Assembly (NCBI GenBank): GCA_039589195.1
Contig: JBDHHV010000038.1
Location: forward strand, 13,288-77,287
From: Gemmatimonadota bacterium
GTDB taxonomy: Bacteria; Gemmatimonadota; Gemmatimonadetes; Palauibacterales; Palauibacteraceae
Reading direction: 5' to 3'
DNA length: 64,000 nucleotides
The translations under genes were made by a program, and so were the position numbers. The notes under the pieces were generated by a model that made no database searches, had not been told where the DNA came from, and saw only the letters and a program-made list of their open reading frames with translations. This document shows, piece by piece, positions 36,409 through 38,291 of the stretch. Every line of letters starts with the position of its first letter. The stretch's first letter is position 1.

Positions 36409-37653
36409 GTGCCCACCGAACTCGATCATCGTAGCCTCTATCGACTGCCGTGGAGCCTGCCCGATAACTCCATCTCATGGCTCGAACCCACGGCTGCCTG
36501 CAACCTCGCGTGCCTCGGTTGCTACCGGACCAACGATCCCAAGGCGCACAAGACGCTCGATGAGATCGACCGTGAGCTGGACGTCTTCACCCGGCTGCGC
36601 ACCGCGGATGGAATCTCCATCGCCGGAGGAGATCCCCTGACCCACCCCGAGATCGTCGACATCGTCGCGAAGATCTCCGAGCGGGGCATCAAGCCGATCC
36701 TCAACACCAACGGCCTGAGTCTGACCCGGGACCTGCTGGTCGAGCTGCAGGGAGCGGGTCTGCAGGGGCTCACCTTGCACATCGACAGCAAGCAGCGACG
36801 CCCTCATTGGCGGGACAAGACGGAGATCGAGCACAACGATCTCAGGCTCGAGTACGCGCAGATGATCGCGTCCGTGGGCGGCCTCTCCTGCTCCTTCAAC
36901 TCCACCGTTTATGAAGACACGCTGCCGGCCGTCCCCGAGATCGTGGCATGGGGCCAGCGACACATCGACATCGTTCACGTCCTGGTGTTCATCTCGTTCC
37001 GCGCGGGCATGCTGGAGGGCGATTTCGACTACTTCGCAGGTGGTGAGCGCATCGACTTCAGCTCCGTGCCCTATGCTTCGGAGGACCCGGGCCGGATCGA
37101 CATCCAGTCCACCGAGATCCTCGCGGCGATTCAGGAGCGGTTTCCCGACTTTCGTCCTTGCGCGTACCTGAACGGGACGCAACGCCCGAACTCTTTCAAG
37201 TGGCTCCTGACGGGCAGGGTCGGGTCAAAGCACCAGATCTACGGATATGTCGGCCCACGGTTCATGGAGCTCGCTCAGATGTCCCATCACCTTCGGCACG
37301 GACGCTACCTGGCGTACACCAGCCCACGTGTCCATCGTCGCGGGCGCTCGATGATGCTCCTCGCGCCGGTCGACGCGGGCATTCGCCATGCCGCGGGAGC
37401 CTATCTGCGTGCGCTTGCCTTACACCCCCTCCGGACCCTCGCACGCGCCCGCTTCCAATCGGTGATGATCATCCAGCCGGCGGACATGCTCCCCAACGGG
37501 CGGATGGATATGTGCGACGGCTGTCCGGACATGACCGTGTGGCAGGACGAGTTGGCGTGGTCCTGTCGCCTGGAGGAGCCGATGCCGCGGTCTTTGGGAT
37601 GGAATCGGCAGCCGGCCCCTCCACGCCTCGAGAGCATCCGCGCCTCCGGGTGA
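36409..37653 (+). CDS. Radical SAM enzyme (layout resembling the HpnH/DUF3463 branch)
   Basis: CX3CX2C motif AACNLACLGCY. Downstream GISIAGGDPLTH and NTNGLSLT are reminiscent of HpnH-type radical SAM proteins. A C-terminal Cys pair (MCDGCPD). GTG 36409 with GAGGAGAG 5 nt upstream; the track ORF starts at TTG 36340. Confidence 0.75.
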   Translation: MPTELDHRSLYRLPWSLPDNSISWLEPTAACNLACLGCYRTNDPKAHKTLDEIDRELDVFTRLRTADGISIAGGDPLTHPEIVDIVAKISERGIKPILNTNGLSLTRDLLVELQGAGLQGLTLHIDSKQRRPHWRDKTEIEHNDLRLEYAQMIASVGGLSCSFNSTVYEDTLPAVPEIVAWGQRHIDIVHVLVFISFRAGMLEGDFDYFAGGERIDFSSVPYASEDPGRIDIQSTEILAAIQERFPDFRPCAYLNGTQRPNSFKWLLTGRVGSKHQIYGYVGPRFMELAQMSHHLRHGRYLAYTSPRVHRRGRSMMLLAPVDAGIRHAAGAYLRALALHPLRTLARARFQSVMIIQPADMLPNGRMDMCDGCPDMTVWQDELAWSCRLEEPMPRSLGWNRQPAPPRLESIRASG

Positions 37654-38291
37654 GCGGTTGGGCTCGCCTGGCCTCGTTCGCGGCCGTGATGGCGTTTCAC
37701 GTGGCCATCTACTCGGCCGTCAACTCCACGAACAGCGCGCGCGACCCGACGCAGTTCCATAATCTGTTTACGCCTTTCGATGCGTGGATCCCCTATCTCG
37801 GCTGGACCTCCTTCATCTACTACTTCGGCGACCTGTACATGGGCGCATGGGCCGCCATCGTCGTCGTGCGGCTTGATCGTGGGTTCGGGCGTGCCATGAG
37901 GGCATATGTCGGCATGGTCATCGTGGGCGGGGTCGTGCAGGTGCTCATTCCGGCGAGCGCCCCGCTCCCGGCGGAGTTCCACTGGCTGCAGGCCCGCGTG
38001 CACGAGCTCTCCATACCACCCTACGCCTGTCTGCCGTCCATGCACGTAGCTCTTACAGCCTTGCCGGCTGCGCTCTCGATACATGTACTGAAGTCGCCGG
38101 TCGCCCGAGGCCTGTCGGTGAGCGCGGCGATACTTATCACGATCTCGACGCTCACGACGAAAGAGCACTTCCTCTTGGACGCAGTCGCCGGCGTGGCCTT
38201 GGCCGCGATCGCGTACGCCTACTGGCGAAGAGGAGCATTGCTCCCGACTCGGGCGCGGTGGGCGCGGCAGCCGTGGGGCTCGGTCGGGTGA
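37650..38291 (+). CDS. PAP2 superfamily membrane protein (lipid phosphate phosphatase-like)
   Basis: GTG 37650 overlaps the radical-SAM stop (GTGA). Six TM helices. PAP2 motifs: PSMH (PSGH-like) and TKEHFLLD (SRx5Hx3D-like). Confidence 0.65.
   Translation: MSGWARLASFAAVMAFHVAIYSAVNSTNSARDPTQFHNLFTPFDAWIPYLGWTSFIYYFGDLYMGAWAAIVVVRLDRGFGRAMRAYVGMVIVGGVVQVLIPASAPLPAEFHWLQARVHELSIPPYACLPSMHVALTALPAALSIHVLKSPVARGLSVSAAILITISTLTTKEHFLLDAVAGVALAAIAYAYWRRGALLPTRARWARQPWGSVG

Follow-up and report, generated by a model that had tools for sequence, protein, structure and literature searches.

A radical SAM enzyme of an unnamed Tes-like family and its PAP2_3 neighbour form a candidate membrane-lipid tailoring pair in Gemmatimonadota

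In a 64,000-nt stretch of a Gemmatimonadota bacterium genome (GenBank assembly GCA_039589195.1, contig JBDHHV010000038.1, positions 13,288 to 77,287 of the forward strand; hereafter the window, in whose own numbering all unprefixed coordinates are given), we examined two neighbouring forward-strand genes, one encoding a radical S-adenosylmethionine (SAM) enzyme (36409–37653) and the other a PAP2_3 membrane protein that ends at 38291. The window has a G+C content of 66%, and its closest relatives are metagenome-derived Gemmatimonadota genomes. The radical SAM enzyme belongs to an uncharacterised, Tes-like family, and the PAP2 gene is found beside members of this family in other genomes as well. 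We give an even chance to the reading that together they tailor a membrane lipid.

The radical SAM gene begins with GTG, ends with TGA, and encodes 414 amino acids as present in the window. Its GTG start at 36409 fits the N-termini of homologues (M..LDHRxLYRLPW) and lies 6 nt after a ribosome-binding site, GAGGAG (36397–36402), with GGAGGAG kept at the same place in the related loci L154 and L156. The CX3CX2C motif for the SAM-binding [4Fe-4S] cluster, which the initial annotation had recognised, is found at residues 31–38 (C31, C35, C38; 36499–36522), and each Cys is present in 400–405 of 408 family members. A second conserved motif, M368-C369-D-G-C372-P-D...S-C386-R-L-E-E, is located near the C-terminus (37510–37566). 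Here C369 is kept in 403, C372 in 402, and C386 in 404 of the 408 members, and Met368 in 338 (83%). Judging from this conservation, the three-Cys site is probably an auxiliary Fe-S cluster site. Thirty residues precede the first cluster Cys, and there are no further conserved Cys/His clusters.

In searches against Pfam at E ≤ 1, the window enzyme matched Radical_SAM (57 bits, residues 26–131) and Fer4_12 and nothing else; neither DUF3463 nor SPASM gave a match at this threshold, and by Pfam a SPASM/twitch Cys-rich C-terminal domain is not present in the family. The C-terminal 200 residues, compared by sequence with Pfam (15 members) and with PDB, had no relevant match. Among the NCBIfam models, none reached its own cut-off and all matches were confined to the shared core, including those of NirJ2 (50.4 bits against a cut-off of 500), Tes (48.3 against 450), and HpnH (43.5 against 225). 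Maturases were also among the top matches, all far under their cut-offs. Assignments to HpnH, DUF3463, SPASM, and anSME were each scored, and all were rejected.

These scores bear directly on the HpnH/DUF3463-branch layout proposed in the initial annotation and on the scheme that goes with it, in which a hopanoid or another isoprenoid would receive a 5'-deoxyadenosyl group from an HpnH-like enzyme and PAP2 phospho-ester chemistry would follow. There is a weak core similarity to HpnH (residues 24–173 only, E 2e-11), and the GGDPL and NTNG stretches are shared, although these are generic radical SAM core motifs. However, the score is far under the cut-off, with NirJ2, Tes, and others outscoring HpnH; DUF3463 is lacking and Pfam offers no family for the C-terminal 200 residues; and the top structural match is Tes, as described below. 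Neither the window's ten largest ORFs nor the annotated syntenic neighbour loci include a squalene-hopene cyclase or hpn gene, which agrees with the earlier observation that other hopanoid genes are missing here. Membership of the window enzyme in the HpnH family is already refuted, and the scheme built on it is hardly credible.

The family to which the enzyme does belong is large, unnamed, and uncharacterised. Its members have about 405–425 residues and are conserved across residues 1–392, where family conservation ends. A word-indexed search indicated more than 3400 proteins; 142 clusters (50% identity) matched at E<1e-30, and there were at least 594 genome matches. These matches came from Gemmatimonadota, Ignavibacteriota, Bacteroidota, Chlorobiaceae, Calditrichaceae, and Bryobacterales, with further members in Solibacteraceae, Thermoanaerobaculia, Solirubrobacterales, and Myxococcota. 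Its known members come almost exclusively from uncultured organisms: Carboxylicivirga marina was the only named isolate among ten distant representatives, and in a search seeded with a Solibacteraceae member the best 120 matches were all environmental, none of them named for an isolate or for a known producer of brGDGTs (branched glycerol dialkyl glycerol tetraethers). Two unusual architectures were also seen in the family, namely a tandem fusion of two of its radical SAM domains (P0332, 816 aa) and a 473-aa protein (P0317) with a sub-threshold N-terminal fragment of a PlsC-type acyltransferase (21.9 bits against a cut-off of 23).

The closest solved relative of the window enzyme, in both sequence profile and fold, is the archaeal GDGT-MAS/Tes. 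When the family profile was compared with PDB, Tes/GDGT-MAS (7TOL) was the top match (E 2.7e-21, 79 bits), and PqqE was next (E 2.2e-12, 50 bits). A structure model of the window enzyme (pLDDT, the predicted local distance difference test, 92.4) aligned with 7TOM/7TOL over 400–429 columns in Foldseek, and other radical SAM structures aligned with the core only (~250 columns). Taking the radical SAM core and the C-terminal domain together, the window enzyme has the overall Tes fold. The window family falls far outside the "bacterial Tes homologues" of the literature, for which the defining limit was E<1e-50 (PMC8941075). By analogy, the window enzyme probably works like Tes, yet we do not file it as a member of the Tes family.

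The partner gene encodes a PAP2_3 protein (PF14378) that scores 53.3 bits against a Pfam cut-off of 27 and belongs to a small family of 78 clusters. Its start was placed at GTG 37650 (213 aa) in the initial annotation, as in cluster P0121, for which an exact-sequence look-up returned no record. The ATG at 37599 is the more likely start, because the N-terminus MES... is common to P0122 and P0124 and the stretch ATGGAATCG is conserved in L154; the gene would then span 37599–38291 and encode 230 amino acids. In an alignment of 29 family members, H132 of LPSMHVAL (PAP2 motif C2; 38043–38045) is invariant, and so are K171, H173, and D177 of TxKEHxxxD, which reads K171-E-H173-F-L-L-D177 in the window (motif C3, HxxxD; 38160–38180). 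The PSMH and TKEHFLLD motifs reported earlier, and the His-His-Asp catalytic residues within them, are therefore conserved throughout. The AlphaFold model (pLDDT 92.3) contains six long helices (residues 3–29, 51–73, 79–99, 131–146, 150–169, and 175–196), as expected for a protein with six transmembrane helices. Because of the distribution of positive charges, the termini and the even-numbered loops are predicted to be cytoplasmic, and the catalytic residues would face outward as in other PAP2 enzymes.

Motif C1 (KX6RP) of hydrolytic phosphatases is absent from the PAP2 alignment, and the loop before C2 keeps only a conserved Pro and Gln. The top fold matches were an inositol phosphorylceramide (IPC) synthase with ceramide (9VJ4), Aur1-Kei1 (9IVC), and human SMSr (8IJQ), followed by LpxE and PgpB. 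On the evidence of the model, the window PAP2 looks more like a phosphotransferase of the IPC-synthase/sphingomyelin-synthase type than like a plain lipid phosphatase. It is conceivable that the protein is instead a polyprenyl-diphosphate phosphatase of the BcrC/PgpB/LpxT type and that the radical SAM enzyme modifies the polyprenyl chain, given that Tes acts on isoprenoid chains (PMC13459092), that LpxE and PgpB come next among the fold matches, and that another PAP2_3 protein, which follows a family member in L009, weakly matches undecaprenyl-diphosphate phosphatase (24 bits). However, that NCBIfam match is far under the cut-off of 229, the phosphatase motif C1 is missing, transferases outrank phosphatases in the fold search, and no isoprenoid genes are nearby; we consider this version quite improbable.

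At the junction of the two genes, the window ORFs overlap in the sequence GTGA (37650–37653), from which translational coupling had been proposed. The overlap is real in the window sequence but private to its assembly, and is not a conserved feature. Three metagenome contigs from three samples (L157, L158, and L159) are 99.9–100% identical to the window on both sides of a junction at 37585/37586, and each holds 87 additional bases after window position 37585, as seen by alignment with L157, L159, and L154 and by blastn. More distant relatives likewise retain the 87 nt. These bases hold the last 17 codons of the radical SAM enzyme (RYGQFVEMVPKSKPGVH) with its TAG stop, and then 33 of the 47 nt of a spacer. 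The same kind of ending is seen in homologues with identities as low as 72%, L154 has the same layout, and P0001, which is identical to the window enzyme over the aligned 95%, ends in ...EEPMRYGQFVEMVPKSKPGVH. Because the deletion took the native end and the stop, the radical SAM frame in the window runs on for 22 codons, first through what is left of the spacer and then, out of frame with the PAP2 protein, into the 5' end of its gene. The result is a non-native 22-residue tail, PRSLGWNRQPAPPRLESIRASG, plus stop (37585–37653), and these unrelated codons terminate at the TGA that forms "GTGA". In relatives, the distance between the two genes is 47–144 nt as called, the usual layout having the 47-nt spacer.

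The apparent translational coupling is a product of this assembly-private deletion, which reflects either variation between strains or a mistake in assembly. With its conserved last 17 residues replaced, the window copy of the enzyme may be impaired. Other small indels relative to the window include an additional 35 nt in L157 and L159 at ~34373 and a short duplication in L159 near 34654–34705, both inside a beta-lactamase-like gene (33624–34838), as well as a gap in L158 near 40664–40702. Split gene calls were found for the beta-lactamase-like gene in L159 and for an S9 peptidase gene in L158, and both genes are intact in the window. Several structural differences thus exist within the population or among the assemblies, and the 87-nt deletion is therefore to be read with caution.

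The adjacency of the two genes is conserved beyond the window. Among 33 metagenome loci with a high-scoring member of the window PAP2 subfamily (PAP2x), 30 have one to three radical SAM genes of the family directly adjoining, and the remaining three end at a contig edge on the relevant side. The pair occurs in Gemmatimonadota (L001, L154–L156) and in Aminicenantales (L002, L003). In L154, L155, and L156 it stands alone, in three different genomic neighbourhoods, and L084 shows the same arrangement as the window with a radical SAM identity of 84%. In addition, a natural PAP2x-radical SAM fusion protein exists (P0209, 623 aa), in which the radical SAM domain is joined to the PAP2 C-terminus; this fits the topology suggested above. 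In four further Gemmatimonadota loci (L007, L009, L011, and L012), an orthologous radical SAM gene (68–76% identity) is followed by an ORF weakly matching the PAP2x hidden Markov model. The ORF in L009 (11225–12121) encodes a different, ~300-aa PAP2_3 protein, confirmed by Pfam, and in L011 a GMC-type FAD oxidoreductase, likewise assigned by Pfam, follows at 13586–15094. This arrangement looks like a second, independent association of a radical SAM enzyme with a PAP2 protein.

Other neighbours of the family include, in L051 and L065, a gene after the radical SAM gene that encodes a 549–564-aa protein, which in L051 is a B12-type radical SAM enzyme. Proteins of the B12-binding radical SAM type, with weak similarity to HpnJ and BchE, adjoin family members in L001 (11893–13366) and L051 (4138–5832), and a 549-aa ORF is found at the equivalent position in L065 (5875–7524). 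The B12-binding type includes lipid methylases and ring synthases.

Larger clusters around the PAP2 subfamily were found elsewhere in three layouts. In the first (L103, L106, L112, L113; for example, L113 4381–11028), the gene order is alpha-oxoamine synthase, PAP2, two to three radical SAM enzymes, a 384-aa protein, and a saccharopine-dehydrogenase-like protein; in L109, the synthase comes at the end of an otherwise equal gene set. In the second (L085, L087, L096), the saccharopine-dehydrogenase-like gene is followed by radical SAM, PAP2, radical SAM, and the 384-aa protein, with a gap before the last of these in L088. The third layout consists of radical SAM, PAP2, and saccharopine-dehydrogenase-like genes (L089–L091, L104, L105, L107). 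The best NCBIfam match of the alpha-oxoamine synthase is serine palmitoyltransferase (SPT; 488 bits against a cut-off of 640), with BioF and Kbl close behind. Across the 33 PAP2-subfamily loci, the SPT-like enzyme occurs in 11 and the saccharopine-dehydrogenase-like protein in 23. The 384-aa protein gave only sub-threshold GNAT matches, in both halves, and no match in PDB or NCBIfam. A sister PAP2 subfamily accompanies homologues of the 384-aa and saccharopine-dehydrogenase-like proteins in loci lacking the radical SAM gene (L121, L122, L125, L126, L132, L135, L139, L140, L144). The older core of the system may lie in the PAP2, saccharopine-dehydrogenase-like, and 384-aa genes.

The context of these clusters points to an amino-lipid or sphingolipid-like pathway. 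For the window, this could mean that the PAP2 protein acts as a ceramide phospho-head-group transferase, with the radical SAM enzyme modifying the long-chain base or the N-acyl chain of a bacterial sphingolipid. Such a sphingolipid version would agree with the PAP2 fold being nearest to IPC synthase with ceramide, Aur1, and SMSr, with the Pfam assignment to PAP2_3, a family with Aur1 among its fold neighbours, and with related clusters that begin with an enzyme best matching SPT and also hold reductase-type and weakly GNAT-like proteins. However, there is no SPT-like gene beside the pair in L154–L156 or in the window, the SPT-like protein itself is under the family cut-off and scores near BioF and Kbl, and the radical SAM enzymes of SPT-containing clusters are only paralogues of the window enzyme (36–45% identical). 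We regard the sphingolipid version as unlikely.

Family membership and architectures, fold relationships, conserved residues, conserved adjacency, and the natural fusion are observed. What we infer for a lipid-tailoring pair is that the substrate is a lipid, which radical reaction takes place, in which direction the phosphoryl group moves, and how the membrane protein is oriented. The cytoplasmic radical SAM enzyme would be a stripped-down relative of Tes, consisting of the core and the C-terminal three-Cys domain. It would remove hydrogen from an unactivated carbon in the alkyl chain of a lipid and, helped by the putative C-terminal cluster, would most likely form a C-C bond as Tes does. The PAP2_3 protein would transfer or remove a phosphoryl head group on the same lipid at the outward side of the membrane, in a way resembling IPC synthase or sphingomyelin synthase. 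Glycerolipids, sphingolipid-like lipids, and polyprenyl lipids are all conceivable substrates. A two-step lipid modification was already suggested in the initial annotation. Of that suggestion, the HpnH-type assignment has fallen away, and the part that stands is that a radical step and a phospho-ester step probably take place on one lipid, because of the conserved adjacency, the natural fusion, and the lipid-type neighbours elsewhere.

Several points weigh against the lipid-tailoring reading. In the 80 closest genome loci, the radical SAM gene is mostly alone and has no conserved neighbour, and therefore its main role does not need the PAP2 partner; the window enzyme comes from this usually stand-alone clade, the PAP2 gene having been gained in its lineage. 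Identity to Tes is 14–16%, with the sequence similarity limited to the core, and the N-terminal [4Fe-4S] domain and the rubredoxin-like domain of Tes are absent from the window enzyme. The fold matches of the PAP2 protein are weak (Foldseek E 1.6e-3 to 6e-3), the C-terminal tail of the window radical SAM copy is non-native, and no SPT-like, saccharopine-dehydrogenase-like, or GNAT-like gene lies within the window. The enzyme may yet belong to the known Mss family. The reading as a whole comes from sequence, models, and gene context.

Upstream of the pair, a GC-rich hairpin with a 16-bp stem and a 5-nt loop (36075–36111, forward strand) was found 3' of the preceding gene by folding 36045–36408. 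L154 retains its stem, where G-C replaces A-U in a single compensatory change. The hairpin is terminator-like but has no T run, for which reason a consensus scan for terminators detected none; the scan detected no promoter either. The leader (36112–36396) contains no recognised RNA element, its best Rfam match having an E-value of 0.74, as had been expected from the lack of riboswitch-like structure. It is conserved in the close relative L154 only, and not in L155 or L156. A riboswitch was considered and rejected, with no Rfam family matching and conservation ending at the close relative.

Downstream, a small secreted 66-aa ORF with a cystine-rich C-terminus lies on the reverse strand (38345–38545), convergent to the PAP2 gene; its counterpart in L157–L159 has a weak match to Pfam Toxin_12 (spider-toxin knottin). 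Further along the window are two paralogous sulfatases of ~820 aa (55067–57520 and 60176–62644), both extended N-terminally by ~340 uncharacterised residues, and no sulfatase maturase was identified within the window. The radical SAM enzyme might mature this peptide or these sulfatases at 55–62 kb, with the PAP2 gene being incidental. The small Cys-rich ORF directly downstream and the two sulfatase genes would supply substrates for such a non-lipid maturase, and NirJ2 and maturases are among the top NCBIfam matches, all far under their cut-offs. By contrast, there is no SPASM/twitch domain, no gene is called at the position of the peptide in L154, the pairs in L155 and L156 are in unrelated neighbourhoods, and both the fusion to a PAP2 membrane domain (P0209) and the PAP2x adjacency in 30 of 33 loci exist. 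The maturase reading is already disfavoured, and we consider it very unlikely. Elsewhere in the window, the gene at 30369–31034 has syntenic counterparts in L154 and L159 annotated as Oxidored_q6 (NuoB-type NADH dehydrogenase small subunit); it stands apart from any nuo operon and adjoins an opposite-strand gene for a PD40/Tricorn-like beta-propeller.

Full-text literature searches aimed at radical SAM enzymes paired with PAP2, at Tes together with PAP2, and at SPT together with radical SAM enzymes and saccharopine dehydrogenase yielded no relevant paper. To the extent of these searches, we found no description of the gene pairing, which the initial annotation had likewise not recognised, or of the larger SPT-like/PAP2/radical SAM clusters. 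A 2026 review of lipid-modifying radical SAM enzymes covers Tes, Mss, Gms, Grs, Gmm, Cds, HpnH/J/P/R, Jaw5, and the ladderane enzymes; no family resembling that of the window is among them. Radical SAM enzymes acting on the inert tails of lipids (Tes, Mss, Gms, Grs, HpnH) account for lipids that serve as environmental and geological markers. Defined here is a large Tes-like family of simple architecture with a conserved phosphotransferase partner, a natural fusion, and recurrent sphingolipid-type clusters, all of which are concrete candidates for expression and lipid analysis. The enzymes that make membrane-spanning lipids in Acidobacteria were described as unidentified in a 2022 study, which proposed an alternative pathway (PMC13159169). 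A link of the window family to brGDGT producers is only a possibility. Going further, one may speculate that the ~410-aa family is a third independent bacterial class of lipid tail-coupling enzymes besides Tes and Mss, which makes membrane-spanning (bipolar) lipids in the Fibrobacterota-Chlorobiota-Bacteroidota (FCB) group, Gemmatimonadota, and Acidobacteriota, that the outward-facing PAP2_3 protein re-heads the far end, and that the SPT-like clusters yield a membrane-spanning sphingolipid-like lipid. We think this improbable at present.

Among known systems, Tes of Methanocaldococcus jannaschii (7TOL/7TOM; NCBIfam NF045702) resembles the window enzyme in having a CX3CX2C core followed by a C-terminal domain. 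A three-Cys site that may correspond to that of Tes occurs in the window family as well, there with a mostly conserved Met beside the first Cys. In Tes, the [4Fe-4S]C cluster is ligated by three Cys and one Met, and the enzyme joins the ends of two lipid tails, the first radical being parked on the C-terminal [4Fe-4S] cluster (PMC13459092). Tes is archaeal and has ~500 aa, whereas the window family has ~410 aa, and the window enzyme is bacterial and has a PAP2_3 partner.

Mss, the bacterial membrane-spanning lipid synthase represented by Tmari_0825 of Thermotoga maritima and by the enzyme of Thermoanaerobacter ethanolicus, is a radical SAM enzyme and remote relative of Tes that acts on fatty-acid tails. 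We take Tmari_0825 to be an AstB/ChuR-type SPASM protein, whereas the window family is without SPASM. Reported homologues of Mss, for which E ≤ 1e-50 and at least 30% identity to Tmari_0825 were required, include members of the FCB superphylum; Mss has been reported from anaerobes only, and none was present in the Acidobacteria genomes examined (PMC13159169). Unlike this reported distribution, that of the window family includes Bryobacterales and Solibacteraceae genomes. Going by the reported distribution and the presumed architecture, Mss is probably a different family.

HpnH (TIGR03470 plus DUF3463), the adenosylhopane synthase, is also lipid-modifying and shares the radical SAM core; it is set apart by the score, the missing DUF3463, and the hopanoid-free surroundings described above. 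On the side of the partner, IPC synthase (Aur1) and SMSr (PAP2_3/PAP2_C) share with the window PAP2 the six transmembrane helices, the His-His-Asp triad, and the lack of motif C1, although identity is 12–19% and the Foldseek E-values are weak. The window PAP2 (213–230 aa) is much smaller than these enzymes and has no Kei1-like partner. No tie to radical SAM enzymes is known for IPC or sphingomyelin synthases, whereas the window PAP2 is genetically tied to them.

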